The notes beneath the pieces were generated by a model. That model made no database searches, was not told the origin of the DNA, and was given only the letters and a program-made list of their open reading frames with translations. From the sequence record OR437326.1: a stretch of DNA of 64,000 nucleotides. The stretch is one strand, 5' to 3'. Every line of letters begins with the position of its first letter. Positions within the stretch are counted from its first letter, which is position 1. Source of the stretch: Escherichia phage iGC_PHA_EC001. Below, in pieces: positions 1 to 31,783 of the stretch. The translations under genes and the position numbers were made by a program.

Positions 1-37
1 AATGTGCAAGGTAGTAATCACGGATTTCTTCAGTCAT
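1..37 (-). CDS. partial CDS, 5' end only (gene continues beyond window start)
   Basis: ATG at 35-37 on minus strand preceded by AGGAGA RBS (plus 39-50); only about 12 codons inside window. Confidence 0.3.
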   Translation of the reverse strand, partial: MTEEIRDYYLAH

Positions 38-57
38 TTTATTCTCCTAATAAGAAA

Positions 58-71
58 GGGGCCGAAGCCCC
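58..71 (-). terminator. GC-rich hairpin GGGGCCGAAGCCCC flanked by A/T runs; putative intrinsic terminator downstream of Sir2-like gene
   Basis: perfect palindromic stem with 4-nt loop followed on minus strand by T-rich tract; same hairpin recurs at 12143 and 16428. Confidence 0.5.
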
Positions 72-80
72 TTGAGTGGT

Positions 81-881
81 TTATTTGTTTAAGTGGTCTT
101 CGACCATTTTAATAAAACCTTCATTGCTGAAGGCTGTTGCAGCTTTTTCTCGGTAAACAAAAACTCCACGATCTTCATAGAGAAGTGTTTCTTCGTAATT
201 AACTCCAGGGTTAACTACAACCATTTTTGTCCCGATGTTAAGAGCAGGAAAAAGCTCCCAGTTAAAATTGATAACTTGATTAGAGCAACCCACTACAATC
301 ACCATATCTTGAGCCGTCAAGCCGTCTAAGATGTGGTACATATCGTTATACAATGGGGCAGTTTCCCCAAAGAACACTACATTAGGCTTCACATACTTGT
401 AATCATCTACATCGATAGCAGCATAGCCAACATCTTTGATGATTCTATTGTCTACGATCACTTCAGGCAGGAAGCCGTGAACATGTAGAACATCTTCATG
501 AACAACACCCGCTTGTTCCAGAAGATCATCTACGTTTGTCGTGATGTTGATAACACGATCACAGCCGTACTCTTGAAACCATTCCGCGATCTGGTAATGC
601 GCAGCGTTAGGAGTTACACTATCCATCTCTACGCGACGTTTATTGTAGAAGTCATGAGTTTTACGGTAGAGGTTGTATCCCTCTGCATCTAATCCGCCAA
701 CAGCCCCAGGAACACACTGTTCTTGTTGGTATCCAGCACGGAAGTTGAAAATGTCACACACTTCAGAAAGGTCGTATTCATCCCACAAAGCTTTGCCACT
801 TTCTGTGTCAGTGCGGAAAGTACGAACACCGCTATCGGCGCTTAAGCCAGCGCCGCTGATCACTATTAATCGTCTTGGCAT
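81..881 (-). CDS. Sir2-family NAD-dependent deacetylase/ADP-ribosyltransferase-like protein
   Basis: N-terminal GAGLSADSGVRTFR resembles Sir2 NAD-binding motif (GAGIS..SGIP.FR); RBS GAGGAGG before ATG. Confidence 0.65.
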   Translation of the reverse strand: MPRRLIVISGAGLSADSGVRTFRTDTESGKALWDEYDLSEVCDIFNFRAGYQQEQCVPGAVGGLDAEGYNLYRKTHDFYNKRRVEMDSVTPNAAHYQIAEWFQEYGCDRVINITTNVDDLLEQAGVVHEDVLHVHGFLPEVIVDNRIIKDVGYAAIDVDDYKYVKPNVVFFGETAPLYNDMYHILDGLTAQDMVIVVGCSNQVINFNWELFPALNIGTKMVVVNPGVNYEETLLYEDRGVFVYREKAATAFSNEGFIKMVEDHLNK

Positions 882-1357
882 TCTTCCTCCTCATAATCTT
901 CATCATCCAAATCGTACACTTCGTCTTGAGAATAACTCACTTCAAAGTAAATATCAAACTCTGCAAACAAACGTAGAATGTTGGACATGCTGTAATAGTT
1001 ATCATAAGCTTCCTCTGCTTCATAGTAGAGGCGTAGCAAACGTTCAGCTTCTTCGTCTTCTACCCATTTATGATCAACATAAACAGAAGCGGCATAAATA
1101 TTGTAGGCTTGTTCTCGACTATCAGCAAGATTTCGGCTTAACAGTTCAGGGAAGTCTTTACCATTTACATTTAGTCTTCCGCATAACCACAAAGCAATAT
1201 CATGCCAATCTGCATCCTCTCCGCTGAAGCAGCTTGCGACTTCGCCAAACTTGGCATCGCCTAAGTCTCCGCTAATAGTGATCATGGTTGAACTATTGTA
1301 ACCACAAGTTTCGCAATTTGAACAACTGTTGTGCACATGAATTTCTACTTGAAACAT
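866..1357 (-). CDS. hypothetical acidic Cys-containing protein
   Basis: ORF track 866-1369; start moved to internal ATG (MFQVEIHV) because first ATG lies inside the GGGAGGAAAT RBS; very acidic C-terminus (DLDDEDYEEEECQDD), CxxC pair. Confidence 0.5.
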   Translation of the reverse strand: MFQVEIHVHNSCSNCETCGYNSSTMITISGDLGDAKFGEVASCFSGEDADWHDIALWLCGRLNVNGKDFPELLSRNLADSREQAYNIYAASVYVDHKWVEDEEAERLLRLYYEAEEAYDNYYSMSNILRLFAEFDIYFEVSYSQDEVYDLDDEDYEEEECQDD

Positions 1358-1377
1358 ATTTCCTCCCATAAAAGAAA

Positions 1378-1400
1378 AGCCCCCTGAAACAGGAGGCTTT
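1378..1400 (-). terminator. putative intrinsic terminator
   Basis: minus strand GCCTCCTGTTTCAGGGGGC hairpin followed by TTTTCTTTTAT, located between convergent-ordered genes 1416-2069 and 866-1357. Confidence 0.5.
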
Positions 1401-1415
1401 GTTCAGATTCTGGCA

Positions 1416-2069
1416 CTATACCAGACTTTGTAGGTATTTGTCAAGGGCTTCTTGATCACCTTGACAAACATAGCAACGGAAGTCTTGAGCCGAAGGTTGT
1501 TTATTTTCATCCCAGTCCCAATAAACATTACCCTTATAACGTGAACCAGGAAACTCAAAAGAGGCTATATGTGTAATGTATCCTGGGCCACCAGTGAAAT
1601 CACAGAATGAGAATTGGGGGTATGCCGCCTTTACTGCCTCAATAAACCAAGCTTTACGATCTAAGGCTTCATTGATGCTATACGCATGTCTCTCCATTTC
1701 TTCCCAAGTCTTCCAGACACTTCTCTCATCAGGAGAAAAGACAAGCCATTCTGGAAGGTAGAGAGTGTCATAGTAATCATCATATTCGATCTCGGAGGCG
1801 CACGAAGCTGACTCCTCCAGTTTTGAGTAATCAAAAGCAGAATATACCCACCAACCATCTTCCAGTAAGGCTTTGATAGGGACGAAGCCTTTATCAGCAT
1901 ATTGATCGAATTGTTTGACACGGTGGCTTGTGCAGTCTTCAAACTCACATTCTAAACGATATGCACCTTTTCGACGAGCCTCAAGACCGTGTGTACTGAA
2001 AATAACAACACTTCCTTCACCATCATTACGATCTACTTGATAAGCAACTACTGGTTTTGAATTTGACAT
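1416..2069 (-). CDS. hypothetical protein
   Basis: 217-aa ORF with AAGGAGAAATA RBS. Confidence 0.55.
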   Translation of the reverse strand: MSNSKPVVAYQVDRNDGEGSVVIFSTHGLEARRKGAYRLECEFEDCTSHRVKQFDQYADKGFVPIKALLEDGWWVYSAFDYSKLEESASCASEIEYDDYYDTLYLPEWLVFSPDERSVWKTWEEMERHAYSINEALDRKAWFIEAVKAAYPQFSFCDFTGGPGYITHIASFEFPGSRYKGNVYWDWDENKQPSAQDFRCYVCQGDQEALDKYLQSLV

Positions 2070-2752
2070 TATTTCTCCTTATCTAGAAGATTGTTAGACA
2101 AAAACACGGCACGAGCAAAACCACGTGCGGTTAGGGATCTAAGTTGTTTTGTTTTTGCACTAGCTCCACCTAAGCTTTTCCAACCCCAGAAGCAGCCTAT
2201 ATGATCTACTGGTTTCTTCACTGGTTGAACAAAACCATTGCCGTGCCAAATACAAGTTTTCTTTGTATACCCATCACGGGTAGGCATTTTAGGATGAAAG
2301 CTTCCTTCCTCTTCAAACAAATACCCACCATACTCATAAGGATCAAAGTAAAAATCGGGTTTACGCCATAAGGTTGAAAGTTTACCTACTGGGTTCTCAA
2401 TCATCCAAGGAACATTATATTTGTTACCCAAAGCTTCCACTACACGAATATTAGCTAAAGCTTCATCTAATTCCTCTGTGCTACGTTCGTGTTTGCTACC
2501 ACTACCCGCTAACATAGTGCAAGGTGGAAATCCAAAAATAATATCGGGTTTAGGTATCCCATGATCTTCAGGGTTGAATGTAGAATCTATCCAGGCATTC
2601 ACATAGGTTATGTTTGGGTGCTCCATCCTAACCTCGTATTTACCGTGATCCCCTTCATCAGCGTTTACACAAAAACACTTGTGACCTGCTTCGGCATAAC
2701 GTAACACCATGATCCCAGATCCGTCAAACATAGACAAAACTGTTTTACTCAT
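2069..2752 (-). CDS. C5-cytosine methyltransferase-like protein (short, no obvious target-recognition domain)
   Basis: motif I-like FDGSG, motif IV-like GFPPC (Pro-Cys catalytic dipeptide), motif VI-like ENPVGKL; start set at MSKTVLS after GGAGGGGTA RBS (track ORF starts earlier). Confidence 0.5.
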   Translation of the reverse strand: MSKTVLSMFDGSGIMVLRYAEAGHKCFCVNADEGDHGKYEVRMEHPNITYVNAWIDSTFNPEDHGIPKPDIIFGFPPCTMLAGSGSKHERSTEELDEALANIRVVEALGNKYNVPWMIENPVGKLSTLWRKPDFYFDPYEYGGYLFEEEGSFHPKMPTRDGYTKKTCIWHGNGFVQPVKKPVDHIGCFWGWKSLGGASAKTKQLRSLTARGFARAVFLSNNLLDKEK

Positions 2753-3140
2753 TACCCCTCCATTCAAGACAAGCCATAACTTTACGCCAATCACTTTCTG
2801 TAAGAAAAATCTCGTTTGCTTTCTTCCACAAATCTAAATCGTGAAGGGTTGGAATACGATATGTTAGTTCACAGAATCTATGCTCTTCTTCTGTAATATA
2901 ACCAAAATGCAGAGCCACATCGTGAAACCAACACCAACCATGCATCTCTCGAACAACATGGTCATGCTGAGACATTGTTTTATGCCGTAAACCTAACCAA
3001 CAAGGAACAGATACTTTAGTAGTCTTTAATCTGTGATCAACAGTATTAGAGTATTCAATAATAGCTGTCAGTTTCAATCGTGCTTTTTCTAAATCCTCAT
3101 GGGTCACTTTGAAATAACTTTCTGAAAGATATCCACACAT
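2745..3140 (-). CDS. hypothetical protein
   Basis: ORF with GAAGGAGG RBS before ATG (MCGYLSES); track ORF begins at upstream TTG. Confidence 0.5.
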   Translation of the reverse strand: MCGYLSESYFKVTHEDLEKARLKLTAIIEYSNTVDHRLKTTKVSVPCWLGLRHKTMSQHDHVVREMHGWCWFHDVALHFGYITEEEHRFCELTYRIPTLHDLDLWKKANEIFLTESDWRKVMACLEWRGNE

Positions 3141-3141
3141 A

Positions 3142-4083
3142 TTAATAACCTCCTTCAAAAGGCTTAACTACATGTTGATTAGCTTTAAAACGTTCAACAT
3201 AGTCGTTTTCGCCCATGTTTTCATATAGCTTAGTAACAACATAAAAGTTTTCCCAAGCATATTCCCTAAACCAACCACTAGTGATGGATGTGCAGACTTT
3301 AGATAAAGCCATTATAAAACTTTGCTTAGGGGTTGGACCTCCGATCTCTTCACCGAAAGGAATTTGTGAACGTTCCAAAGCCAAAACACACGCTTCTTCA
3401 TAAACACCTAACAGGCGCACATGTTTTGGTTGAGCAAAAAACTTTTCTTTGCTGGTCATAACTTCACTTCCATCTTTCATATAAGATTTATATGCTGGAG
3501 CATCCATTACCGCGATTGCTTCATGGATAGAATCATGATCATAAACATACGGAACCTCATCCCCTTTAAAGAAGTCTTTACTTTTTACGTTTAAGTTCGG
3601 ATGAGAGTAAGTGTATGTTTCTTTCTCACGCAACTCATAAATACTCTTAAGATTTTCTGGGATCTTTGCACCCAGTGACCGCATGAAATGAATATCTTTC
3701 ATAGTTTTAAAGAAGTGAGGACTATCCTTTTTAAAACGATGACTCATTTTAAGAAGGTAGAGCACATCTAAAGGAGCAACAACATGTCCAGCGTAAGTTC
3801 GACGAACATCATCAGAATCTTCACAATAGCTAATCAAAGCTTCTGTGCTATCTCCTTGAGAAGCAATATCGTATTCCAAATGTGCACCAGCTATCATTTT
3901 GACATGGCCTTTGTTTCCTTTACGTTCTACAAGTTCAACAAACTCCTCTTGAGAGAACATTTTTGATAATTCTTCCCACTCTTGTTCTGTACACAGGTAA
4001 TCTAAATCTACACAAGGGCGATACAAGTCTTTTCCCATGTCCATAGCATGAATTTGCAATGCACGGCTACCAATTAACACCAT
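3142..4083 (-). CDS. hypothetical protein with possible Pol-beta-type nucleotidyltransferase fold
   Basis: N-terminal LIGSRALQIH...CVDLDYL fits hG[GS]...DxD minimal nucleotidyltransferase signature; 313 aa; GAGGAG RBS. Confidence 0.45.
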   Translation of the reverse strand: MVLIGSRALQIHAMDMGKDLYRPCVDLDYLCTEQEWEELSKMFSQEEFVELVERKGNKGHVKMIAGAHLEYDIASQGDSTEALISYCEDSDDVRRTYAGHVVAPLDVLYLLKMSHRFKKDSPHFFKTMKDIHFMRSLGAKIPENLKSIYELREKETYTYSHPNLNVKSKDFFKGDEVPYVYDHDSIHEAIAVMDAPAYKSYMKDGSEVMTSKEKFFAQPKHVRLLGVYEEACVLALERSQIPFGEEIGGPTPKQSFIMALSKVCTSITSGWFREYAWENFYVVTKLYENMGENDYVERFKANQHVVKPFEGGY

Positions 4084-4107
4084 AATATTTCTCCTCTATT
4101 GGTTGAT

Positions 4108-4142
4108 AGGTTAAGTTTATCAAGCTTCCAGATTCCTGTCAA
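4108..4142 (-). promoter_or_regulatory. putative sigma70-like promoter for leftward transcription
   Basis: minus strand TTGACA - 17 nt - TAAACT upstream of RBS of gene 3142-4083. Confidence 0.4.
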
Positions 4143-4149
4143 TAAAAAA

Positions 4150-4163
4150 CCCGCCGAAGCGGG
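4150..4163 (-). terminator. GC hairpin CCCGCCGAAGCGGG with flanking A/T runs, putative (possibly bidirectional) terminator
   Basis: palindromic stem, T-run on minus strand, A-run on plus strand. Confidence 0.5.
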
Positions 4164-4173
4164 TTATTATTTA

Positions 4174-4446
4174 CTAACACATTGAGGAAGAAGAGATCCA
4201 AACACCTCTTGTGGTTAAACCATTTTCATCCAACTCTACACCATAATCTTCACAAATGAAATCAATATAGTGATCTGCGGCTGGCGTTCCTGTAGGGTAA
4301 TAAGTTTCTCCGTTACCGTAGTCACCTATCCAAGCTTGTTCCTGAAACTGTTCACAAAGTTCTTCAATTTCCTTACGAAACTTTCTTTGTGCTTGTTCCA
4401 TCTCTTTAACTTTCTTTTTTATCAGCAGTTCGCCTTCAGACTCCAC
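4174..4446 (-). CDS. small acidic protein, paralog family member A (C-terminal W-I-SSSS-M-C)
   Basis: GTG start with AAGGAGAG RBS; C-terminus GVWISSSSMC shared with two neighbouring ORFs. Confidence 0.5.
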   Translation of the reverse strand: MESEGELLIKKKVKEMEQAQRKFRKEIEELCEQFQEQAWIGDYGNGETYYPTGTPAADHYIDFICEDYGVELDENGLTTRGVWISSSSMC

Positions 4447-4455
4447 AATCTCTCC

Positions 4456-4674
4456 TTAACAGCTACTACTGTGCCAAACGCCTTGAGAATTAACGACGAA
4501 ACCATCATCACCTTCACCATAACAAGAAGAGGATTGCCAATCTTCAAAACAGATTGCGTCATCTTCTAAACTAAGACCAAAACCAGCATCTTCAGCTTCT
4601 TTTGTAAGTTCGTCCACTAAAGCCATAATAGCTTGGGCTTTTTCAGTTAATTCTTCAACATTACGATAACTCAT
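4456..4674 (-). CDS. small acidic protein, paralog family member B (two W-x-SSS-C motifs)
   Basis: start at MSYRNVEEL after GAGGAGAAATACTA RBS; internal WQSSSC and C-terminal WHSSSC. Confidence 0.5.
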   Translation of the reverse strand: MSYRNVEELTEKAQAIMALVDELTKEAEDAGFGLSLEDDAICFEDWQSSSCYGEGDDGFVVNSQGVWHSSSC

Positions 4675-4943
4675 TAGTATTTCTCCTCTGGTTGGAAAAC
4701 GGAACGACAGGCCCACATAGAAGCTTCTTTCAACTTAGTCTTTGCTATTGAAATTTGGTCAAGGCGGGTGGATATATTGGTAGACTCTTCCAAATCTTCA
4801 CAATCATCCAGTTCAGTCCACAATTCAGACATTAGAGCATCAAAGATTAAGCCTAATCGAACTTCAGCATCTTTAATAGCATTCACTTTACCAATTTTGT
4901 CATCGGTATGCGGTTTATAACCTTTGATATCTTCGATTCCCAC
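4674..4943 (-). CDS. hypothetical protein
   Basis: ORF track 4674-4982; preferred start GTG after AGGAGGTAAA RBS, which avoids overlap with upstream gene. Confidence 0.4.
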   Translation of the reverse strand: MGIEDIKGYKPHTDDKIGKVNAIKDAEVRLGLIFDALMSELWTELDDCEDLEESTNISTRLDQISIAKTKLKEASMWACRSVFQPEEKY

Positions 4944-4954
4944 TTTACCTCCTA

Positions 4955-5152
4955 TTAACAACTTAAAGAAGATGGATGCCAATTTGTTCCAGTATTCTCA
5001 TTTTCATCTTCTGGATCATAATAACCACCCATCCCATATTCAGGGGAGAAACTGAAACCTTCACCAGTCTCGTCTGCTAACTGCTCTGCTTCCGCTAAAG
5101 CCTCATAAGCTGCTTTTACGGCTTCTTCTACTGTTTTAAACTTGGTCGTCAT
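4955..5152 (-). CDS. small acidic protein, paralog family member C (C-terminal W-H-PSSLS-C)
   Basis: RBS GGAGAGGAGAAATTTT before ATG; C-terminus NWHPSSLSC. Confidence 0.5.
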   Translation of the reverse strand: MTTKFKTVEEAVKAAYEALAEAEQLADETGEGFSFSPEYGMGGYYDPEDENENTGTNWHPSSLSC

Positions 5153-5426
5153 AAAATTTCTCCTCTCCTAAAGACATGTTGACATGAAATGCGCGGTATG
5201 TAAATTCGTTGTCCGTTGTGTTAGAATAAAACTCAAATTGAACAACACCATCTTGAGAAGACAGATACATGCCAATTTGAACTGTTCCTTCTGGTACCAG
5301 GTAAGCATACTCTGGGCGTAGTGTTACATTGTAAAAATAAAGTTCCCCAACACCCATTTCATCCCAAGCTTCCCAAGCGGTAACGAAGTTACTTTCAAAA
5401 CTTGTTACTGATCCGAACTCTGCCAT
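5136..5426 (-). CDS. hypothetical protein
   Basis: RBS GAGGAGG; 96 aa. Confidence 0.5.
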   Translation of the reverse strand: MAEFGSVTSFESNFVTAWEAWDEMGVGELYFYNVTLRPEYAYLVPEGTVQIGMYLSSQDGVVQFEFYSNTTDNEFTYRAFHVNMSLGEEKFYDDQV

Positions 5427-5917
5427 AAAACCTCCTCAATCTTGTAGTTTGACTCCATCTCCAACACATTTCCACGAACGTCTCTCCGAAGAAAGGCATA
5501 AGCTTTATTAGGTATTGTAGACTCATATTTAACCATATCTGGCACAGCAAAAGATACTACTACTCCTGCTGGGCTTCTGTCAAGAGCCTTATTAATATTT
5601 CTAAGGATATCGTTAGCCAAGATTTCTGCCAATTCTCCAAGAACGGTTTCGGTTATATCTTTATATCCCATTAAGTATTTGTTGATATCTTTCATCTCTG
5701 TATTGTTCAGAGTATAATCCAAAGGATAGAAATTCAAAGCGGAGTCACTTTTATGTGTCCACATGAAATGCACCCGATCCGAGCAGAATCGTAACCCTCT
5801 TTGAAGAATATCTTCTACAACAGGCAGAATTTCTTTTGTCACATCATTAACCATGTTGTAATCTAAGATTTCTGCCAAGTTTGTTCTTTGTTCACCACGT
5901 TTACGTTTAGGAATCAC
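5405..5917 (-). CDS. hypothetical protein
   Basis: GTG start with GAGGG RBS; 170 aa. Confidence 0.45.
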   Translation of the reverse strand: MIPKRKRGEQRTNLAEILDYNMVNDVTKEILPVVEDILQRGLRFCSDRVHFMWTHKSDSALNFYPLDYTLNNTEMKDINKYLMGYKDITETVLGELAEILANDILRNINKALDRSPAGVVVSFAVPDMVKYESTIPNKAYAFLRRDVRGNVLEMESNYKIEEVLWQSSDQ

Positions 5918-6488
5918 TTGTTATTGCCCTCATTACCAAAGGTCGTAGAAAATCGTAAATCTCTTGTTTTGTTTTCCCACGAATGTTTAAACAAGGAACA
6001 TTATTGGCTTTAGCTATCTTCCAAGCCGTAGCTGTTCCACCTTTTGCATCTCCATGTTTATCAGTATTAGCACAAGCCAACAAGAAACATGATGGAGCAG
6101 GATTCTCCAAATCTCTACCTAACACTTGATGCACATTACGTTGGTGCAATTTTCTAGCACCCTGCTTAAGCTTTTCATAGGCTGGGTGAACATCTTTGAT
6201 CCATTGCACAGAGATAGCATAGTTCATTGTATCTGGTTTTGCAAGAACAATAACATCCCCTGGAATCTGATTACCTTTGAAATTTTCCCAAGGAACATAA
6301 ATCTCCTTGTTAGTAGGATTTTCAGACTCTTGGACACCTGTTTCAAAAGCAGAATCACTACCCTCTGCCTTCCCAGACCTTAATTTAAACCCAAGGTTTG
6401 AAAGCCATTTCCCTATGCCTACCATCAAAGCCCACTCTTCTTCGGATATGTCTCTACTTCCAACTCCCGTATAGAACAGTTCTGCCAT
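5907..6488 (-). CDS. DprA/SLOG-like Rossmann-fold protein (putative nucleotide-binding)
   Basis: TGVGSRD ... SGKAEGSDSA resembles DprA/Smf motif (GSR ... SGxAxGID); start at MAELFY after GAGGTG RBS. Confidence 0.4.
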   Translation of the reverse strand: MAELFYTGVGSRDISEEEWALMVGIGKWLSNLGFKLRSGKAEGSDSAFETGVQESENPTNKEIYVPWENFKGNQIPGDVIVLAKPDTMNYAISVQWIKDVHPAYEKLKQGARKLHQRNVHQVLGRDLENPAPSCFLLACANTDKHGDAKGGTATAWKIAKANNVPCLNIRGKTKQEIYDFLRPLVMRAITSDS

Positions 6489-6495
6489 AATCACC

Positions 6496-6804
6496 TCAAC
6501 AAGTAATTTCAAAAGGTGTATACGGTTCCGTATTTCTCATGATCCAAGGACTGCTAGGATTGCTCGGATCATAAGGACCAAAAGGTTTTATGGTCGGTTG
6601 TGTTTCTTTCTTCTGAATCTCTTCAAAAATACGACGAAGTTCAGAATATTCTTGATCCACCATAAGATTCGGTGCATCTGATTCTACAGCTTGCAGGTTA
6701 TCTTCCTTAAGAACAATCTCACGAACAAGATTAACATCTTCTGTTTCTAAGATAACTTCTTTACGGATATTACCTACACTTTGAATAATTGTAATCTTAT
6801 ACAT
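6496..6804 (-). CDS. hypothetical protein
   Basis: RBS GAGGAGG; 102 aa. Confidence 0.5.
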   Translation of the reverse strand: MYKITIIQSVGNIRKEVILETEDVNLVREIVLKEDNLQAVESDAPNLMVDQEYSELRRIFEEIQKKETQPTIKPFGPYDPSNPSSPWIMRNTEPYTPFEITC

Positions 6805-8710: not shown

Positions 8711-8890
8711 TCACGTAGTTGTTATGTTGTCTTCTTGGATACTAGAATCCACTTCTGCAAACATATCTTCTGCACTGTAATTATTTCCAGTCCAGCGTGA
8801 TAAAAGGATAGCACCAATCTCTTTTGCATGAGATTCGGACTCCGCATAAACGTTAGTCCCAGTGTCACCTTTTTTTCTTTTCATGTGCAT
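8711..8890 (-). CDS. hypothetical small protein (59 aa, below ORF-track cutoff)
   Basis: open frame MHMKRKKGDTGTNVYAESE... found by manual translation of minus strand; no clear RBS. Confidence 0.3.
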   Translation of the reverse strand: MHMKRKKGDTGTNVYAESESHAKEIGAILLSRWTGNNYSAEDMFAEVDSSIQEDNITTT

Positions 8891-8914
8891 AAATGCAGTA
8901 ATAATTGTAAGCCA

Positions 8915-9151
8915 TTAATCTTCCCAGTCATTGCCCTCGGTAGAGTGAACTAAAGCTCGCACGATACCACCGTAATCTACTGCCTGATTTGCAGCATGTT
9001 CGGCATAAACTTCAATGGCTTTTTTGAAGAAAAGAGCAGTAGCTGCTTCAATATTATCCATTTCGCCATCTACGTCAGTAGAAAGTGAAAGGTTGAGGCT
9101 TTCATCTACTTCATCAAAATCAATAGCCACCGTCATAATTAGTTTACCCAT
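8915..9151 (-). CDS. hypothetical protein
   Basis: RBS AAGGAG; 78 aa, acidic. Confidence 0.45.
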   Translation of the reverse strand: MGKLIMTVAIDFDEVDESLNLSLSTDVDGEMDNIEAATALFFKKAIEVYAEHAANQAVDYGGIVRALVHSTEGNDWED

Positions 9152-9163
9152 AGTTCACACTCC

Positions 9164-9673
9164 TTAAACAAAATAAAATGGTTGAGAGAGGCCCAAACGA
9201 TTCTTTGGGTCGTATACATACCAAGCGTATGCTGTCTTATCTGTTCCACCTGCAACAAACGAAGGCCGTTCTGAAAGGACTATAAGGTTTGTTGGTGGAC
9301 TCTTTTGATGGAACTCTCGTCGTTTCTTTGACTCCAAGAAGCCCAACCTAAGAAGATAAATACAAACATCCGCCTCTTTTAAGCTCTTTTCCAAGAACTC
9401 CATTGCCAACTTAAATGGAGGATTTGTGATTATAATGTCGGGACGATTTTCCCATTCATGACTAAAATAATCTTTACCTTCTTCAAGTTCGCAATATTCT
9501 GAACCTTCAGGAAAATGGCGATAAATCGCTTCAGCTTCACCTCTGCAAGGTTCTGCAAAAACCCAACCTTCTTCCTTTAAATTTTTGAAATCTATAACAC
9601 TAAACAAACTATTGATTGCTTTTTGCGGTGTCGGATAATAATCGCTCGTTGGGCGATCATAATCTAATGCCAT
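9164..9673 (-). CDS. small DNA N6-adenine methyltransferase-like protein
   Basis: DYYPTP motif plus IIITNPPF (motif IV NPPF); GAGGAG RBS. Confidence 0.5.
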   Translation of the reverse strand: MALDYDRPTSDYYPTPQKAINSLFSVIDFKNLKEEGWVFAEPCRGEAEAIYRHFPEGSEYCELEEGKDYFSHEWENRPDIIITNPPFKLAMEFLEKSLKEADVCIYLLRLGFLESKKRREFHQKSPPTNLIVLSERPSFVAGGTDKTAYAWYVYDPKNRLGLSQPFYFV

Positions 9674-14486: not shown

Positions 14487-14495
14487 TTTCTCTCC

Positions 14496-23241: not shown

Positions 23242-24201
23242 TTAGATTCCAATAATAGTTGCTGCTCGTTTATCTTTGGATCTGGTGTTTGCTCTACTAC
23301 GTGACAAACCTCCACAAGATTCACAACGAATGATATCGAAAGAACTTACCGCAGTGTGGTATTGCTTACCAGTAACAACGTGAACATGATCACTGCCGCA
23401 ACGAGAACAACGGACTTTCTCATCTGGGTAATAAGCGGATAAGTTAGGATGCTGTGGAATCCACGGAAGGATTTTCATATACAAATCACGGAGTGAAACA
23501 ACATCGCCATCATTGTAAATCTGCATACGTTCAAAAGCATCACGATCACCTTCACAACATGCTTTCCATAAAGGGAACCCCTCGTTATCCAGTTTTTCAC
23601 TTTCTGTTTCGAAATATGCTCCCATTTCTTTAAGGGAGTTGGAAGGAAGTGCAAATTGTTTCTTAGCTGCCTTCAATGTATCAACAACTACATAATTAGA
23701 AGGAGGAGCCATATCGTGATATGCAAATCGTTGGTTAATGTATGCACGGTCAAACTTATACCCGTTGTGTGCCACAACTACATCTGCCTCGTTCAGAAGG
23801 TTCCAAAGATCTTGGCAAAGCTCCCAATCATCTGTATGATCAATATCAAAAAGAGGATAAGAAGACAAGTTCTTACCTTCTACTTCACCTGTATACAAAT
23901 CAGCAGAAGAGTAAGATAACAAATAACCCCTACGAATTACCTGGTCTGGAGAAATGAAGGCTTTGAATCGACGGAAAGTATATGCAATCTCTGGTGCAGT
24001 TTCAACATCAATAATTTTAATAACTGGTTGTTTCTTTTTAACTGGCTCTTGTTTACTTGCACCGAAACGTGCAAGGAAATCATTTACTGTGCTTTTTCTT
24101 GTTGGACTACCTAAAACAATTGCTGCAATATTACGAGAAGACATACCCTCTGCACTCATACTAAGGATATCTGCTTTCTGCTCTTCTGTTAATCTGCTCA
24201 C
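23242..24201 (-). CDS. DnaQ-like (DEDD) 3'-5' exonuclease with N-terminal HTH and C-terminal Cys-rich zinc-binding region
   Basis: Exo I IIDVETAP, Exo II HNGYKFD, Exo III YNDGD; C-terminal CSRCGS...CESCGG; GTG start after AGGAGG RBS. Confidence 0.55.
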   Translation of the reverse strand: MSRLTEEQKADILSMSAEGMSSRNIAAIVLGSPTRKSTVNDFLARFGASKQEPVKKKQPVIKIIDVETAPEIAYTFRRFKAFISPDQVIRRGYLLSYSSADLYTGEVEGKNLSSYPLFDIDHTDDWELCQDLWNLLNEADVVVAHNGYKFDRAYINQRFAYHDMAPPSNYVVVDTLKAAKKQFALPSNSLKEMGAYFETESEKLDNEGFPLWKACCEGDRDAFERMQIYNDGDVVSLRDLYMKILPWIPQHPNLSAYYPDEKVRCSRCGSDHVHVVTGKQYHTAVSSFDIIRCESCGGLSRSRANTRSKDKRAATIIGI

Positions 24202-25316
24202 TCTGCCTCCTGTTGTGAGATGTATGACTGAAGCATACTCTCAAATGTTGTATCGTCATTATCCCAGCGTTTCATGTATACCAACTGGAAAATTGTTTCT
24301 ATCCATTCATCTGTTGTCATATGGACTTCTTCTCCATCCCAAGAAGTAAAATTAACACCATCTGGGAACCATGAGTAGTAAGTATCTTTAACTGTTTGGA
24401 AAAGTTCTGCTTGAGTTTTACAAGCTGAAAGAAGATTAAAACAAGTAATATCTCCGAACTTAATATCAAAATCTTGATAAGGTCGGATACTATCTGTTTT
24501 ATCCCCCATTAGCATCTGATATGCTAACCAGTAACTGCCCCAACCTTTAACTTCTTTCTTTTTACCTTTATCTACGATCCATATATCGCCAATAGACTCG
24601 TCAATAAGAATTATATCTGGATTTTTAAATACTCCATCCTCTTTGTAGAAATTAAAAAGGATACTAGGAGTATGTAAACTATCTTTATCTATAGACACTA
24701 CGATATAAGAAAATTTACCCGTCCTTTTATAATCTTTATAACCTTGGAAACCATACTTCTCTAACTCATCATCAGCTTCTATTACAGTAACAACATCACC
24801 ATTGTGGAACTCCACAAGATAATCTTTGGTTTCTGAAAGCTGAAGTGGTTTGATATCTAATCGTTCAGATTTATATTCTACAGGCATTTTGAAGGCGTGT
24901 CTGAAAGTTTTTCCTACGCCAATAACTCCGCAATATTTTTCTAAACGTAGATGTTTTAGAATACCTAAGACTTTTGTTTTAGCTGCTTGGAAGGTGTGTC
25001 CGATATCTTCTGGCGGGTATTGCTTATCAATGATTTCGAACTCTTCCTTTGTGAAGGGACGTTTGTTTTTGGAGGCTCTTTCTGCATTTGTATCTCCTAG
25101 CCAACCTCCAATTTTAGTCTTGCTTTTACCCCAAAACTCTGTCTTATTTTTAAATTCCTTTTGAGCACCTGAAGGGATGTGCTTCGCAATGATTGTTCTT
25201 TTCTCTAACGCAGATGCTGCTTGGAAAGCGATCTGATCATAATCAATTGCAGCTATTGTTTCTTCGTTGACATATAAATGAAGATCTTCAGGTTTAATTA
25301 AAATATAACCGCTAAT
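24198..25316 (-). CDS. FEN-family 5'-3' exonuclease / flap endonuclease (T4 RNase H, T5 D15-like); start codon unresolved
   Basis: EADD, DESIGD and LMGDKTDSIRPY blocks match FEN signature; reading frame is open for 147 codons upstream of first ATG (24887) with no ATG/GTG/TTG; candidate ATT start at 25314-25316 after GGGGGA. Confidence 0.5.
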   Translation of the reverse strand: MSGYILIKPEDLHLYVNEETIAAIDYDQIAFQAASALEKRTIIAKHIPSGAQKEFKNKTEFWGKSKTKIGGWLGDTNAERASKNKRPFTKEEFEIIDKQYPPEDIGHTFQAAKTKVLGILKHLRLEKYCGVIGVGKTFRHAFKMPVEYKSERLDIKPLQLSETKDYLVEFHNGDVVTVIEADDELEKYGFQGYKDYKRTGKFSYIVVSIDKDSLHTPSILFNFYKEDGVFKNPDIILIDESIGDIWIVDKGKKKEVKGWGSYWLAYQMLMGDKTDSIRPYQDFDIKFGDITCFNLLSACKTQAELFQTVKDTYYSWFPDGVNFTSWDGEEVHMTTDEWIETIFQLVYMKRWDNDDTTFESMLQSYISQQEAE

Positions 25317-25328
25317 ATTTCCCCCTAA

Positions 25329-25538
25329 TTATTCATCGTCATCCTCTGTTGAGAATGTTTTAGTATACGGACATTGACGACTTTTCGGGATTGCTATAAC
25401 TTCATCTTGGTTAGCGTTAGAATAGTAGCAATATTTTGTGTTGCCATTAACTTCAGAATCAGACAAGATTAAAGTAATTTGACCTGCTGCTACTGTGAAA
25501 CTAAAAGCTAAAAGAACGACTGTCAGAATCTTTTTCAT
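25329..25538 (-). CDS. small secreted/periplasmic protein with N-terminal signal peptide
   Basis: MKKILTVVLLAFSFTVAAGQ signal-like N-terminus, acidic C-terminus; RBS AGGAGGCG. Confidence 0.5.
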   Translation of the reverse strand: MKKILTVVLLAFSFTVAAGQITLILSDSEVNGNTKYCYYSNANQDEVIAIPKSRQCPYTKTFSTEDDDE

Positions 25539-25548
25539 AACGCCTCCT

Positions 25549-25577
25549 AAAAAGCCTACCTCATTAAGTAGGTAGGC
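25549..25577 (-). terminator. intrinsic terminator
   Basis: inverted repeat GCCTACC ... GGTAGGC followed on minus strand by TTTTT directly before RBS of 25329-25538. Confidence 0.55.
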
Positions 25578-25610
25578 ATAATATCATAACTAATCCCGCA
25601 AGTCAAGAAC

Positions 25611-26489
25611 TTATTTAAGGATTGTTGCTTTGGTTAAATCTTCCATCAGACCTCGAATCTCATTGAAGCACAGAAGGACCGAAGCTTCAATACTACCTTC
25701 TTCGTCTGCAAAATATTTCGGAAAACGTAGTTTAGAAAGTTTAAACTCTTTATCCACTACAAAATCTACAACACCGTCATATTCAAGACCGATTGCAACA
25801 ACATCTTTACCATCTTCTTTTAGTTCGACAGCTTTAGACTCGTATAGGGATTCTTTACTCCAAACAACAACGCCCTCGCTATCCTCCATTTTGATATAAT
25901 TTCCGAGAGTAATACGATCTGCTTCGTGATTCTCCAGCAATTCACCAAAACCTTTTACAATAGCTTCTTCATGCACACTAAAACCTACCGAAGGGAAAGT
26001 CCCCAGAACGGAACGGAGGAAAGAAGTAATCTCTTCTGCAACCTTTTTACTTCCATTAAGAACATAAAGAAGATTCGTAGTTTTATCCAAGACAACATAG
26101 TTAAAGAAATCTTCAGGTTCTGTTTCAGGCAATAGTGCAAATTCAATATCTTCCTTCATTGCTTTGACTACTTCTTTATCGACATAAAACTCTTTACCTT
26201 CGCTCTCCATGTCCTGACGCATTTCTTCTAGCCGTTCATTCAGAATACGTTTAACTTTCTTTTTATCTACCTTCTTCACAGATTGACCTACATTAAGCAG
26301 TTCAAGATCTGAGAACTCTTTTACAAATTTAGAGTCATCTTCGAAACGAACAAGACCGATAGTGTGTGACTGGGAGCCTTCTGCTGTTACAAATTCCAGA
26401 GGAATATCTGTAATGCTGTTAAGGGATGCTACAGAAGCATTGTCACCAACAACCATAGGCAGAGCGGATTTAAAAGATTTTACAAACAT
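25611..26489 (-). CDS. RdgC-like recombination-associated protein
   Basis: YVLNGSKKVAEEITSFLRSVLGTFPSVGFSV resembles RdgC block [37 protein letters not shown]; about 290 aa as RdgC. Confidence 0.5.
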   Translation of the reverse strand: MFVKSFKSALPMVVGDNASVASLNSITDIPLEFVTAEGSQSHTIGLVRFEDDSKFVKEFSDLELLNVGQSVKKVDKKKVKRILNERLEEMRQDMESEGKEFYVDKEVVKAMKEDIEFALLPETEPEDFFNYVVLDKTTNLLYVLNGSKKVAEEITSFLRSVLGTFPSVGFSVHEEAIVKGFGELLENHEADRITLGNYIKMEDSEGVVVWSKESLYESKAVELKEDGKDVVAIGLEYDGVVDFVVDKEFKLSKLRFPKYFADEEGSIEASVLLCFNEIRGLMEDLTKATILK

Positions 26490-26545
26490 GTTTCCTCCTA
26501 TTTAATACATCTCACATTACCGCCCGTAAAGGGCGGCTTACAACA

Positions 26546-27271
26546 TTACTTGTTAATAATACCTGCAATATTAGGTTTGACAAAGGTCGATGGTTTCATG
26601 ATCTTACCTTTATCATCAAAGAACACATACACTTTCTGTTTTTCATTATAAACAGCATGAACACCAGTGTATGCCCCTTCTGGACGATTGGCATTTCGTT
26701 CTTCAATTGCAGCGCATTCTTGTGCAATGGCTGAATCGATATCAGAAGTTTTCCAAGTTTTCAGCAACTGTTGTTTAGTTGGATACTTAGAATCATTACT
26801 TTTCAATACCTCTTTAATAACTTTCTTTTCTGGATATTTTGAACGGATTAGAGTGTCACGAGACATACGCATAATACCAGCAGCCATTAGTGCCATTTGA
26901 ACTGGCTCTGTAAATGTTTGTTCCAAAGCATCAAAATCAGTATACACAGTTGGAGTAAAAACATCGCCTACAGCATAGTCCAAGAAATTCATCGTATGTT
27001 CTTCACCAAAGAACATGTAAGTCAGATAACTGGATACTACAAAAATATCCGCCGCTGCATCCAAGAGTTCTACATGATCGTTTACTTTCGCGGCTGTTTC
27101 ATACTCTTTAAGCTCTTCACGAACGAACCCGATTTGGGACATAAATAACTCTTGAGTGAATTCAGGTTGTTCACCACCTCGTGCTTTGGCATTCCAATCA
27201 ATTACGTGCTTTGCTGCATTTTTGAAAAATTCAGTATCGAATTTAATATCTTTAAAAAAATTCTCGATCAT
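26546..27271 (-). CDS. hypothetical protein, possible MazG-like all-alpha NTP pyrophosphohydrolase domain
   Basis: REELKEYETAAKVNDHVELLDAAADIFVV has MazG-like E..E...E/D spacing; weak. Confidence 0.4.
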   Translation of the reverse strand: MIENFFKDIKFDTEFFKNAAKHVIDWNAKARGGEQPEFTQELFMSQIGFVREELKEYETAAKVNDHVELLDAAADIFVVSSYLTYMFFGEEHTMNFLDYAVGDVFTPTVYTDFDALEQTFTEPVQMALMAAGIMRMSRDTLIRSKYPEKKVIKEVLKSNDSKYPTKQQLLKTWKTSDIDSAIAQECAAIEERNANRPEGAYTGVHAVYNEKQKVYVFFDDKGKIMKPSTFVKPNIAGIINK

Positions 27272-27280
27272 TATAACTCC

Positions 27281-27463
27281 TTATTTAAAATAGCTTTCTA
27301 GAAAGTTGCTAATATTTACTACAGTCTCACCCATGTAAATTCCTGCGAAACCGAAAACAAGCATACGTGGAATATTGAAATACCATTTATCTGCCGGAAA
27401 AGATGCCAGAATTACAATAGCAATTGCTATCAACATCATAAGAATTGTTGCTAAAATTATCAT
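27281..27463 (-). CDS. small membrane protein
   Basis: start at MIILATILMMLIAIAIVILASF (hydrophobic helix) after CTGGAGG RBS. Confidence 0.4.
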   Translation of the reverse strand: MIILATILMMLIAIAIVILASFPADKWYFNIPRMLVFGFAGIYMGETVVNISNFLESYFK

Positions 27464-27516
27464 AAAAATGCCTCCAGGTATTTTGCACAATGATAAGCTA
27501 AGAACATTTTTCCTCC

Positions 27517-28632
27517 TTATTCTGCTGGTTCCCAAGTGTCTGGGATCATTTCTCGAATACGAACACCAACAGGTTTTGTTGGAATACCTTCATCTGAAAA
27601 TTCTTCATACTCTATTTCAACGAACTGATTAATCAAGGTAGAAGCATTCTCTGCTTTACGATAATTGATAGTCTCATGAGCATCTTTACGCATTAAGAAT
27701 TCGACTACTTTACCATTTTCCATCTCACCTGTCAACACTCCATCGCCATTTTTATCACTTTTTGAATTTGTTACTTTAACTTCAAGGGTGTGGCGAGGCT
27801 TACGTTTAATAACGTCATAAGAACGTTTATCAAATTCGTAAACTCCGTGAGCATTACGATATACTACACCTTCAGCTTTCTCAAGTAAAGCTTTTTCATA
27901 GAAAGCATCAAACTGTTCTTGGTTTTCAATATACTCTGTATGAACTACGCAAATAAGCTCGTCAAGACCATAATCTTCAACTACTGCCTTAAGAGCAGCA
28001 AGAACATCAACACGTTTTTCAAACGGTAGATCTGGAACTGGAATATCATATACGTAATAATTCAGCAAAGGTGTATTTGCATTATGCTTCTTCCAGGCAC
28101 TGTTAATTTGTTGCAGACTAAGGACACCTAACCCAGCAAACACTTCACCATCAAGAGGATGACCAACAACTTCACTAATAAAGTTTGGAATACCTTTCCA
28201 ATGAGGTGGCAGGTTATACACTTCCCCAGCTTTTGATAAACACTCCCCTTTCATATTAATCATAGAACGTAACCCGTTCAGTTTGTATTGTGCATAACCA
28301 GGGAACACAACCCTTTCAGGATAATCTTTATAATCCTGGCATTTCATTGGTGTAGAAGGAACATGGTTTTCAGCTTCTTCTTTTGTTTTATAATAGCCAT
28401 TCTTTAACTGTTTTGTCCATTTTGCAAAAGCTTCAAGTTCAGCTTGCTCTTCCGGTGTTGTTTCATTGGAACGACCAATGTTTTTTGCTTCTGCTGTATA
28501 AGATTTTTCTGTGATTTTTCCACCTACCCTTCCATGAGCTACAGTAACAACTGCACCATCTGTATACACTGTCCACTGTTTAAGTTTTCCTTTTGAATCT
28601 TTACCATACAGCGTTTGATTTGTTTGTTGCAT
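27517..28632 (-). CDS. ATP-dependent polynucleotide ligase (DNA ligase-like, nucleotidyltransferase superfamily)
   Basis: motif I variant YKLNGLR (KxDG with Asn), motif V-like EGVVYRN and KRKP; start at MQQTNQ after GGGAGGA RBS. Confidence 0.6.
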   Translation of the reverse strand: MQQTNQTLYGKDSKGKLKQWTVYTDGAVVTVAHGRVGGKITEKSYTAEAKNIGRSNETTPEEQAELEAFAKWTKQLKNGYYKTKEEAENHVPSTPMKCQDYKDYPERVVFPGYAQYKLNGLRSMINMKGECLSKAGEVYNLPPHWKGIPNFISEVVGHPLDGEVFAGLGVLSLQQINSAWKKHNANTPLLNYYVYDIPVPDLPFEKRVDVLAALKAVVEDYGLDELICVVHTEYIENQEQFDAFYEKALLEKAEGVVYRNAHGVYEFDKRSYDVIKRKPRHTLEVKVTNSKSDKNGDGVLTGEMENGKVVEFLMRKDAHETINYRKAENASTLINQFVEIEYEEFSDEGIPTKPVGVRIREMIPDTWEPAE

Positions 28633-28853
28633 TAGTCCTCCCATTTAAAAACTGAAATTTTCAATCTGTTACACACTTCATCCAAATCTGCGTCGAGTAA
28701 CGTTGTAGATGTTGCCAACATATAATCAATGCTTGTGAAACCTTGCCCTTTGGCATAGTCAAGCATATCTTCATACATATCTTCAAGATCACCGTCATCA
28801 AAAGTAGCTAGAAAATCCTCGTCCCCGCTACGAACATAAAATGCAGTACTCAT
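28632..28853 (-). CDS. hypothetical protein
   Basis: 73-aa acidic ORF; stop overlaps ligase start (TAATG). Confidence 0.4.
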   Translation of the reverse strand: MSTAFYVRSGDEDFLATFDDGDLEDMYEDMLDYAKGQGFTSIDYMLATSTTLLDADLDEVCNRLKISVFKWED

Positions 28854-29041
28854 TCATCTTCATCCCAAGATTCAAAAGCACAACAATCATCGGTTTCTAT
28901 AATACCGACACGTCCACAGGTATTGCAAGTGATTTTATCCCCGTAGAATAAATAATTTTTATCACCCTCTGTGTTTACAGTTATGTCATTACTACCACAA
29001 GGGCAAGTCAGCCAACCAACAACAACGATATCTTTTTTCAT
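28850..29041 (-). CDS. small Cys-rich zinc-ribbon-like protein
   Basis: CPCGS...CNTCGR...CC; RBS AAGGAGGG. Confidence 0.4.
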   Translation of the reverse strand: MKKDIVVVGWLTCPCGSNDITVNTEGDKNYLFYGDKITCNTCGRVGIIETDDCCAFESWDEDE

Positions 29042-29050
29042 AATCCCTCC

Positions 29051-29377: not shown

Positions 29378-29386
29378 TATTTCTCC

Positions 29387-30724: not shown

Positions 30725-30725
30725 A

Positions 30726-31633: not shown

Positions 31634-31639
31634 TGTTTC

Positions 31640-31783
31640 CTAATCCTCCTCTCTTAAGTTATCCTCGAAAAAACTAGTATCTGGAAGTAAAAGATCATTA
31701 CTTGTGTCGGGCCAATCCTCTTCTTCTCGGTAGATAAAGTAACCTTCGTCCTCTTCTTGTTCCGACCAAACCGAATGATGCAT
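31640..31783 (-). CDS. hypothetical small acidic protein (47 aa, below ORF-track cutoff)
   Basis: manual translation MHHSVWSEQEEDEGYFIYREEEDWPD...; RBS TAAGGAGAGAAC. Confidence 0.35.
   Translation of the reverse strand: MHHSVWSEQEEDEGYFIYREEEDWPDTSNDLLLPDTSFFEDNLREED

Follow-up and report, generated by a model that had tools for sequence, protein, structure and literature searches.

Positions 81–4083 of the stretch of Escherichia phage iGC_PHA_EC001 DNA analysed here (OR437326.1; the window, 64,000 nucleotides in all) encode a Sir2-family protein, a very acidic protein, a small protein resembling C5-cytosine methyltransferases and a nucleotidyltransferase, and the question that they raise is whether they form a single functional module. 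The sequence-only reading of this DNA had taken them together as a left-end island serving host takeover or anti-defence. The window is that of a phage like Escherichia phage phAPEC8 (Phapecoctavirus, Stephanstirmvirinae), in which positions 24049–30548 correspond to window positions 1–6500 at 98.8% identity, and the genes are named here after their phAPEC8 homologs. The four open reading frames (ORFs), with the motif strings noted in them, are indeed present on the minus strand, as are the neighbouring genes and hairpins described below (window positions 56–5152) and the RNA-repair cluster at 29387–32149; all four are annotated coding sequences in phAPEC8 and members of PHROG families. Two more genes, which the sequence-only reading did not mention, lie within the same stretch, namely those of gp195 (1416–2069) and gp193 (2745–3140). 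It is rather probable that these genes do not work as one machine but belong to three units: gp196 with the sirtuin, a gp192–gp195 block, and gp192 with an upstream array of small proteins that share a C-terminal tail. The parts are a sirtuin of a predicted clade, a widespread minimal C5-methyltransferase, lineage-specific genes, and a MenT-like nucleotidyltransferase with apparently undescribed partners.

The gene of the nucleotidyltransferase gp192 (313 amino acids, 3142–4083) lies downstream of genes for three small acidic proteins of PHROG 899, located at 4174–5152: gp191 (4174–4446), gp190 (4456–4674) and gp188 (4955–5152), which end in GVWISSSSMC, GVWHSSSC and NWHPSSLSC, respectively. 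In a co-occurrence table, these upstream genes were the small-gene link to gp192 across phage groups. A tail ORF was defined as one of 50–140 amino acids, located within 3 kb upstream of gp192 on the same strand and ending in W-x(1-4)-S...C, and was sought in 80 diverse viral loci (L002–L081, retrieved with the gp192 alignment) and in five loci from metagenome-assembled genomes (MAGs; L090–L094). One to five tail ORFs are found upstream of gp192 in 75 of the 80 viral loci and in all five MAG loci (80/85). The motif is present in 200 of 959 small ORFs upstream of gp192 on the same strand, as against 7/1653 farther upstream, 5/2311 downstream and 13/6332 on the opposite strand (0.2–0.4%), which corresponds to an approximately 50- to 100-fold enrichment over other small ORFs of the same loci. 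In the whole 64-kb window, it occurs in gp188, gp190 and gp191 only. Moreover, the fetched loci of phages without gp192 contain no tail-motif ORFs, and the sister genus (phi92-like phages) has neither gp192 nor tail ORFs. When same-strand neighbours were clustered without bias, the tail family was the only one common across loci, the next families reflecting T4-like synteny only, and the association is retained in 29 of 32 gp192 clusters formed at 60% identity. Because the two are co-inherited across phages, because the motif is enriched and because no other neighbour family is shared across loci, gp192 appears to be functionally tied to the upstream tail-protein genes and not to the genes downstream of it. 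This link is statistically very strong, spans unrelated phage groups and is apparently undescribed in the literature.

The tails themselves are highly constrained. Cys is the last residue in 142 of 147 distinct tails; Trp stands seven residues before it in 104 and five residues before it in 31, and positions -5 to -3 are mostly Ser, so that the consensus reads G-W-x-S-S-S-(x-x)-C-COOH on otherwise variable protein bodies. The tail proteins (PHROG 899; acidic; median length, 84 amino acids) share an N-terminal amphipathic helix, often with a YGMGGxYY stretch. They match no Pfam family and carry no source name, a PDB sequence search gave chance-level matches only, and a literature search found nothing on Cys-terminated phage small proteins. 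A tblastn search with the 65-residue gp188 retrieved close relatives only (76 records) and is uninformative beyond the genus. In gp190, a second, internal copy of the motif (WQSSSC, within DWQSSSCYGEGDD) precedes the terminal VWHSSSC, and orf126 of phage JS98 (L082, 5706–5930) likewise has an internal copy, DWLNSSCYG; these copies hint at tail duplication or at two modification sites. In one protein, P0331 (377 amino acids), a PHROG-899-like protein ending in QWNSSGGPAC is fused in frame to a gp192 homolog, a single case that is possibly a gene-calling artefact.

Pfam divides gp192 into DUF7277, a Pol-beta-type nucleotidyltransferase core (residues 1 to approx. 100; E-value 1.1e-13), and the helical domain DUF7275 (1.2e-75). 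The AlphaFold2 (AF2) model (predicted local distance difference test score, pLDDT, 91.3; predicted template modelling score, pTM, 0.85) likewise places a nucleotidyltransferase beta-alpha-beta core before a helical domain; an HD phosphohydrolase fold was considered for DUF7275 and was not found. The GS...DxD signature that had suggested this fold corresponds to G5-S6 and D26-x-D28, and the acidic triad of D26, D28 and E70 is invariant in the alignment, together with G5 and S6. The active-site residues are thus intact, and gp192 shows the signature of the DNA polymerase beta-like nucleotidyltransferase superfamily (hG[GS], [DE]h[DE]h, third carboxylate and core). In particular, gp192 is predicted from the model to be a Pol-beta nucleotidyltransferase closest at the fold level to the MenT/AbiEii toxins. 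By sequence, its assignment to AbiEii (DUF1814, PF08843) or RlaP (PF10127) was rejected, there being no Pfam match in 36 family members (for PF08843, none at E <= 1); the RNA ligase gene, adjacent to which RlaP would be expected, lies 26 kb from gp192. PDB sequence searches with the single sequence and with a profile gave no match, and the best 150 matches listed in the profile search are all full-length and strong, with no bridge to a named family.

The gp192 family (PHROG 2141) has 2209 members in an index search, which form 1600 clusters at 50% identity and are uniformly approx. 300 amino acids long. It is found in 734 phage records, including those of JS98/RB69-type T4-like phages, Acinetobacter, Aeromonas, Pseudomonas, Gordonia and Streptomyces phages, and jumbo phages. 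Among 185,579 bacterial and archaeal genomes, it is present at five loci, all in MAGs. One of these MAG contigs (L092), binned as Thermosynechococcus and probably phage, has, at 8820–9135, a tmRNA-like gene, together with 12 tRNA genes, just downstream of its gp192 homolog. A literature search found no publication on DUF7275, DUF7277, RB69 ORF134c, PHROG 2141 or PHROG 899.

Nucleotidyltransferases that modify a partner protein are known, for example MntA, which acts on HepT. As for every protein of this region, the biochemical activity of gp192 is inferred, and the leading proposal is that the tail is its site of action, where the MenT-like enzyme would transfer a nucleotidyl group to a Ser hydroxyl. 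Since the terminal Cys is so strictly kept, a second chemical step is suggested, for instance one that involves a metal or a carboxylate, or an attack on Ser once it is activated or eliminated. The acceptor ends of tRNAs are lengthened by MenT toxins, which are controlled by small antitoxins encoded upstream, and these antitoxins can trigger phosphorylation of an active-site Thr or Ser (PMC7450476, PMC10435456, PMC11375011); MenT-family active sites can take a protein Thr or Ser as acceptor (PMC11375011). That the tail proteins are substrates of gp192 is tentatively preferred here, at a confidence well short of even. It is also possible, though doubtful, that PHROG-899 proteins and DUF7277/DUF7275 enzymes make up a phage-specific system of protein-tail modification by Ser-O-nucleotidylylation, which may proceed to dehydro-alanine and a Ser-Cys thioether ring. 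Two observations weigh against the substrate proposal. The enzymes structurally nearest to gp192 have tRNA 3' ends and not proteins as substrates, and between the tail-protein genes and gp192 there lie a terminator and a promoter-like site. In the 90-nucleotide gap between gp191 and gp192, a hairpin (4165–4148), annotated as a terminator in phAPEC8 too, is followed by a sigma-70-like promoter match (4142–4114); the number of promoter matches in the scan is not above that expected from shuffled sequence (18 vs 16.1), and the two intergenic sites are sequence matches only. If tail modification is true, it would arm or tune variable host-directed effectors or decoys, and it would be a new viral post-translational chemistry, shared by over 700 sequenced phages that range from T4-like to jumbo. 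The genes of gp192 and of the tail proteins lie in early regions, the part of the genome in which phages carry genes for host takeover and counter-defence, and two families hitherto called hypothetical (PHROG 2141 and PHROG 899) become a testable pair of enzyme and partner.

The same structural neighbours favour another explanation of gp192, namely that it is a MenT/AbiEii-like RNA nucleotidyltransferase acting on tRNA 3' ends, for host tRNA shut-off or CCA repair, with the small proteins as MenA-like regulators or specificity factors. The long amphipathic helix with which PHROG-899 proteins begin is consistent with such a role, and RlaP-type nucleotidyltransferases are known to mend damaged RNA ends (PMC12776372). 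However, the AbiEii/DUF1814 and RlaP (PF10127) families of Pfam go undetected in all 36 gp192 family members, and up to five paralogs with a conserved C-terminal W-x-SSS-x-x-C are unlike known antitoxins; moreover, the helix is the variable part of the small proteins and the tail the invariant one. tRNA clusters lie within 10 kb of gp192 in approx. 20 of 60 loci, including non-T4-like contigs, but this proximity is confounded by shared T4-like synteny and was dropped as a functional clue. Overall, a tRNA-directed gp192 is considered rather unlikely, and the tail proteins are retained as its candidate substrates.

The sirtuin gp197 (266 amino acids, 81–881) is a Sir2-family protein, as had been recognised from its sequence. 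It matches Pfam SIR2 (PF02146; E-value 6.5e-20; 72.3 bits against a cut-off of 24) and PHROG 2162 (1.1e-101), and its nearest solved structures are the protein deacylases CobB (1s5p, 2e-15) and SIRT5. Residues 10–23, GAGLSADSGVRTFR, form the Rossmann nicotinamide adenine dinucleotide (NAD)-binding motif, which is invariant in its clade. The clade was aligned with seven members (the window, tuntematon, phi92-like Nernie, a T5-like phage, Mydo, an rV5-like phage and an IMG/VR contig). All seven share the GAGxSxxSGxxxFR loop, TTNVD, the catalytic H135-G136 and the GCS motif. In particular, H135 aligns with the catalytic His of CobB, and the ribose-binding motif is TTNVD throughout the clade (TQNxD with Q replaced by T), N116 and D118 being invariant. 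The Cys4 zinc module is absent: no Cys stands between H135 and K165 in any of the seven. All NCBIfam CobB equivalog models score below their cut-offs (best, 98 bits vs 243), and the PADLOC defence SIR2 models (ThsA, DSR and Sir2-HerA) match at chance level only (PDC-S65, E-value 3.2e-4 over 39 residues). The sirtuin is CobB-like and not of the defence type.

Over its full length, the sirtuin is 50–61% identical to T5-like, Mydo and rV5-like proteins, and homologs occur in 978 phage records. By this similarity, it belongs to the phage RNA-repair-associated clade predicted by Iyer, Burroughs, Anantharaman and Aravind in 2022 (PMC9503650), who proposed that its members are KptA/Tpt1-like and remove RNA 2'-phosphates in an NAD-dependent manner. 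Their argument rests on gene neighbours, including RNA ligase, cREC, kinase, MazG, phosphoesterase and an HAD "Swiss-army-knife" phosphatase (PMC9503650). RNA-repair-type neighbourhoods are seen in single genomes, namely those of T5-like Salmonella phage 1-19 (HAD_SAK_2), Mydo and an rV5-like phage. Among 65 viral Sir2 loci, 42 have at least one RNA-repair-type neighbour within 8 kb (HAD_SAK in 28; Rnl1, kinase, phosphoesterase or cREC in 11–13), and a methyltransferase or nucleotidyltransferase context is found in 8–11. gp195 is present in 11 of the 65; no other gene accompanies the sirtuin so constantly in this lineage. The clade has lost the zinc-binding peptide-clamp module while keeping the NAD-binding and catalytic residues, and the sirtuin would most likely carry out NAD-dependent 2'-phosphate removal, or a related ADP-ribosyl transfer, in the repair of cleaved tRNA.

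The window encodes the RNA-repair genes with which the sirtuin might act, although none lies within 8 kb of it. They form a cluster at 29387–32149, assigned by Pfam and by homology to the genes that flank Sir2 in Mydo and rV5-like phages, with a P-loop kinase (29387–29791), a T4 Rnl1-type RNA ligase (29792–30724), a calcineurin-like phosphoesterase (30726–31277) and cREC (31793–32149). The 28 kb between the sirtuin and these genes weigh against an RNA-repair role, as does phAPEC8, which retains the sirtuin even though it lacks window positions 28785–31090: ligase and kinase are gone, and all that is left of the phosphoesterase is a remnant of 62 residues. The sirtuin therefore does not strictly depend on the ligase and kinase. 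In Mydo, it lies between the kinase and a DNA ligase; judged by this position, the sirtuin of the present lineage seems to have left the cluster. An RNA-repair role is the best available inference, and it is not obligatory. The clade is a natural experiment, in which the sirtuin is found beside an HAD phosphatase, inside the ligase/kinase/cREC cluster or apart from it, and phAPEC8, with ligase and kinase lost and sirtuin kept, makes it possible to test the RNA 2'-phosphate hypothesis directly.

The sirtuin start is overlapped by 16 nucleotides by the gene of gp196 (167 amino acids, 866–1369), and the two genes lie between two terminator-like hairpins, one 8 nucleotides past the sirtuin stop codon (56–73) and the other, with an 11-bp stem and a T-run, in the 46-nucleotide gap between gp195 and gp196 (1376–1400). 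The protein has an isoelectric point of 4.05, a net charge of -30 and six Cys, and ends in the tail DLDDEDYEEEECQDD. Thus, the overlap, the acidity and the acidic tail that had been noted in it were borne out; of the supposed pair of CxxC motifs, only C19/C22 is conserved, the first Cys of CSNC being variable. Residues invariant in the alignment are C19-E-T-C22-G, G34-D-L-G37, A45-S-C47 and C164 in the EECQDD tail, a Cys pattern that would be compatible with a four-Cys metal site. gp196 was found in 139 phage records, from Stephanstirmvirinae and, as matches to the N-terminal domain, from two jumbo Klebsiella phages; it has no Pfam match, and a PDB sequence search gave chance-level matches only. 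No gene of the region varies more: its identity to phAPEC8 is 77%, as against 99–100% for its neighbours, and a hypervariable patch (approx. 1028–1193) cannot be aligned with phAPEC8 by blastn while its flanks are 96–99% identical. The gp196 allele of the window recurs in contig L002 of IMG/VR, in which the other genes are no more than 56–94% identical. This allele distribution points to recombinational allele exchange.

Both proteins enter into a different explanation of the sirtuin, in which it is a protein-directed lysine deacylase or ADP-ribosyltransferase that reprograms host proteins, and gp196 acts with it as partner or regulator, or else independently as an inhibitor of the DNA-mimic type. 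The closest solved relatives, CobB and SIRT5, are protein deacylases, the two genes overlap between two hairpins, and gp196 is extremely acidic and diversifies fast. Nevertheless, the zinc module, which helps form the acyl-peptide cleft, is absent clade-wide, and the sirtuin scores far under all CobB equivalog cut-offs. As for a partnership, the gene overlap and the bracketing hairpins are the only arguments for it, whereas T5-like and rV5-like members of the clade lack gp196, alleles of gp196 and Sir2 do not co-vary, and the one gp196-like gene found outside the lineage has no sirtuin beside it. The idea that gp196 supplies the zinc module in trans was ruled out, because the module is absent throughout the clade, including the T5-like and rV5-like phages without gp196; it is also opposed by the independent alleles and by the location of the outside gp196-like gene. 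DNA mimicry is a guess from composition, and Pfam, PHROG and PDB searches found no homology of gp196 to DNA-mimic anti-restriction proteins. A protein-directed sirtuin is thus unlikely, and RNA repair is kept as the preferred role.

The description of gp194 (227 amino acids, 2069–2752; PHROG 757, 6.7e-85) as a C5-methyltransferase-like protein with no room for a normal target-recognition domain was right. FDGSG, GFPPC and ENPVGKL are all present, and 26 relatives have as invariant residues F9, D10, G11, S12 and G13 of motif I, F75, P76, C78 and T79 of motif IV, and E119, N120 and P121 of motif VI. In motif IV, most relatives have Pro at -2, and the window protein has Pro at -1 too. These motifs align with M.HaeIII and with the enzyme of Nernie (see below). 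The Pfam C5-methylase family PF00145 scores 11.6 bits against a cut-off of 22 and is detected in 8 of the 26 relatives (best E-value, 3.1e-6). The AF2 model (pLDDT 86.8) supports the fold: the top 50 Foldseek matches are all DNMT3A/B, and other matches are a prophage C5-methyltransferase, M.HhaI and M.HaeIII, with 180–191 of the 227 residues superposed. Near the C-terminus, RSLTPRGFARAV resembles motif IX and is separated from motif VI by approx. 85 residues; no motif VIII or X could be recognised in the sequence. Judged by the model, gp194 has a C5-methyltransferase fold and appears to have almost no target-recognition domain. The family numbers 870 proteins in an index search and 1487 phage records, mainly of T1-like siphoviruses, and sources annotate the relatives variously as (DNA) cytosine methyltransferase by similarity only. 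A literature search on small T1-type cytosine methyltransferases gave nothing usable. The RefSeq record of phAPEC8 has two further short "DNA methyltransferase" annotations, gp177 (169 amino acids; window approx. 9160–9670) and gp117 (159 amino acids; approx. 42440–42920, between portal and head genes).

In the phi92-like phage Nernie, a canonical PF00145 enzyme of 329 amino acids (4.1e-44; L087, 2677–3666) stands between the gp193-like and gp195-like genes, in the place of gp194, to which it is only 25% identical over motifs I–VI. Because a canonical C5 DNA methylase fills the same slot in the sister genus, gp194 is most likely a DNA methylase, and this displacement in situ favours such a role; the enzyme would methylate DNA at a short or degenerate site. 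Two points weigh against it: only motifs I–VI of gp194 align with the canonical enzyme in hhalign, and phages of this group, for all their methyltransferase-like genes, are reported to be exceptionally sensitive to restriction systems (PMC8594841). This sensitivity therefore leaves room for a substrate other than DNA, such as RNA (in a Dnmt2-like manner, for example in tRNA protection) or free nucleotides, or for transfer of a group other than methyl. The near-absence of a target-recognition domain, the lack of protection of carrier phages from restriction (PMC8594841) and a genome rich in tRNA and RNA-repair functions would fit a non-DNA role. It is nonetheless improbable, since the best fold matches (DNMT3B/A, the prophage C5-methyltransferase, M.HhaI and M.HaeIII) are DNA enzymes, the canonical enzyme in the equivalent slot acts on DNA, and relatives are named DNA cytosine methyltransferases, if by similarity only. 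Should gp194 be active on DNA, it would be among the smallest such enzymes and informative on the minimum needed for target recognition.

With the parts described, the question of a single module can be answered from their distribution. The sirtuin, the methyltransferase-like protein and gp192 are found in 978, 1487 and 734 phage records, respectively, as against 139 for gp196, 158 for gp195 (217 amino acids; PHROG 8514) and 128 for gp193 (131 amino acids; PHROG 16551), which are lineage-specific; gp195 has no Pfam match, and a PDB sequence search with it gave chance-level matches only. Among the 80 viral gp192 loci, 7 have Sir2 nearby and 8 the methyltransferase; these loci all come from close relatives of this phage. 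The phi92-like sister genus keeps gp193-like, gp195-like and gp196-like genes and Sir2, has no gp192 and has a different methylase. Alleles are also reshuffled: every gene is at least 99% identical between phAPEC8 and the window except gp196 (77%), whereas between tuntematon and the window gp192 is 100% identical and Sir2 70%. Intergenic gaps of more than 11 nucleotides number only two in the region, the 90-nucleotide gap between gp191 and gp192 and the 46-nucleotide gap between gp195 and gp196; each contains a strong terminator-like hairpin, and a third hairpin lies 3' of the sirtuin gene. Their mostly separate occurrence, the reshuffling of alleles and the hairpins therefore indicate that the flagged genes are not one module. 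The three units would be a translationally coupled gp196–Sir2 pair between two terminator-like hairpins, a tightly packed block of gp192, gp193, gp194 and gp195, and gp192 with the upstream array of gp188, gp190 and gp191. Against this division stands a block of gp192, gp195 and Sir2 that is kept at approx. 50% identity in a second related lineage (L006, L140–L147), so that the arrangement of nucleotidyltransferase, methyltransferase, gp195 and Sir2 possibly has some selective value. Seen in Stephanstirmvirinae-type phages alone, the arrangement is a juxtaposition of long standing in this group, and nothing ties its parts together functionally.

That Sir2, the acidic protein, the methyltransferase and the nucleotidyltransferase form one host-takeover or anti-defence module that targets immune signalling by NAD or nucleotides (Thoeris, CBASS, DSR) is very improbable: all are non-structural accessory genes that run in the same direction in the early arm, the order of nucleotidyltransferase, methyltransferase, gp195 and Sir2 is kept at approx. 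50% identity in the related lineage, an Acb2-type anti-CBASS sponge homolog is 600 nucleotides away and the Sir2/gp196 segment swaps alleles, as counter-defence genes often do, but the three widespread genes mostly occur apart, the sister genus has Sir2, gp196 and gp195 but no gp192, and its methylase is another one, terminator-like hairpins divide the stretch, the sirtuin is CobB-like and not of the defence type, and gp192 lacks the motif of phage cyclic-dinucleotide synthases. For phage MNT-like synthases, this motif has been given as GS-x-AY[GAN]T-x4-SDxD with NP-x-h2[DE] (Ho et al. 2022, preprint); in gp192, GSRAL is followed by 17 residues before DLD. The link to NAD- and nucleotide-signalling immunity that the sequence-only reading had drawn from the Sir2 and nucleotidyltransferase folds thus finds no support here, and its island dissolves into ordinary accessory genes, annotated or predicted already.

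An anti-defence neighbourhood was not borne out by the four flagged genes, and yet it holds for a gene just outside them. gp189 (4674–4943), located between gp188 and gp190 and 600 nucleotides upstream of gp192, matches Pfam PF24729 (Acb2_Tad1_hairpin; 1.4e-19; 70.5 bits, cut-off 27) and shares 67% identity with JS98 vs.4; in phAPEC8, it is annotated only as hypothetical. By this similarity, it is a homolog, of the T4 Vs.4 type, of an experimentally known anti-CBASS cyclic-nucleotide sponge. The neighbourhood therefore holds a counter-defence-type gene outside the four.

The flagged stretch forms the left end of the window only; in phAPEC8, it is internal, at 24.1–28.1 kb of a genome of 147.7 kb. 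GC skew and annotation agree that the minus strand carries all genes up to approx. 34 kb of the window, which places the stretch at the far 3' end of a long arm of leftward early/middle genes and not at a genome end. The same arm encodes nucleotide metabolism and replication genes. Elsewhere in the window, at approx. 14491–14495, approx. 1.9 kb found in phAPEC8 (38543–40414) are missing from a dTDP-sugar (rhamnose-type) cluster, comprising a glucose-1-phosphate thymidylyltransferase gene and part of an epimerase gene. Several MG0656xx records that go under "Campylobacter phage" share 99% identity with E. coli Phapecoctavirus or T1-like genes, and their host labels look doubtful.

Compared with known systems, several parts of the region have recognisable counterparts, from which they depart. 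gp189 matches the Acb2/Tad1 hairpin domain of the Acb2 (T4 Vs.4) sponge, and only in this lineage is it interleaved with tail-protein genes, which are approx. 6 kb away from it in T4-like phages. The sirtuin shares with the phage RNA-repair clade the invariant NAD-binding and catalytic residues, the loss of the zinc module and a repair gene set in the genome, but is flanked by gp196 and gp195, away from the repair cluster. gp194 has motifs I, IV (with the catalytic Cys) and VI (ENx) and the overall fold in common with C5 DNA methyltransferases such as the short-target-recognition-domain DNMT3A/3B, M.HhaI and M.HaeIII; it differs in its length (227 vs approx. 280–330 amino acids), in reading FPxCT instead of PCQ in motif IV, and in scoring below the Pfam threshold. 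Arrangements of one enzyme with multiple precursors are known for ribosomally made, post-translationally modified peptides, and the gp192 locus resembles them in having paralogous small genes with an invariant Ser/Cys-rich stretch, then a hairpin and then a single enzyme gene. Here, however, the invariant stretch is at the extreme C-terminus, the bodies are of the size of folded proteins, and neighbour clustering linked no cyclase, lyase or decarboxylase gene to the array. With MenT/AbiEii and their MenA/AbiEi partners, gp192 shares the small helical protein genes directly upstream; unlike them, gp192 is phage-only and no member of these families at the sequence level, and its partners come in arrays that carry the C-terminal W-x-SSS-x-x-C tail.

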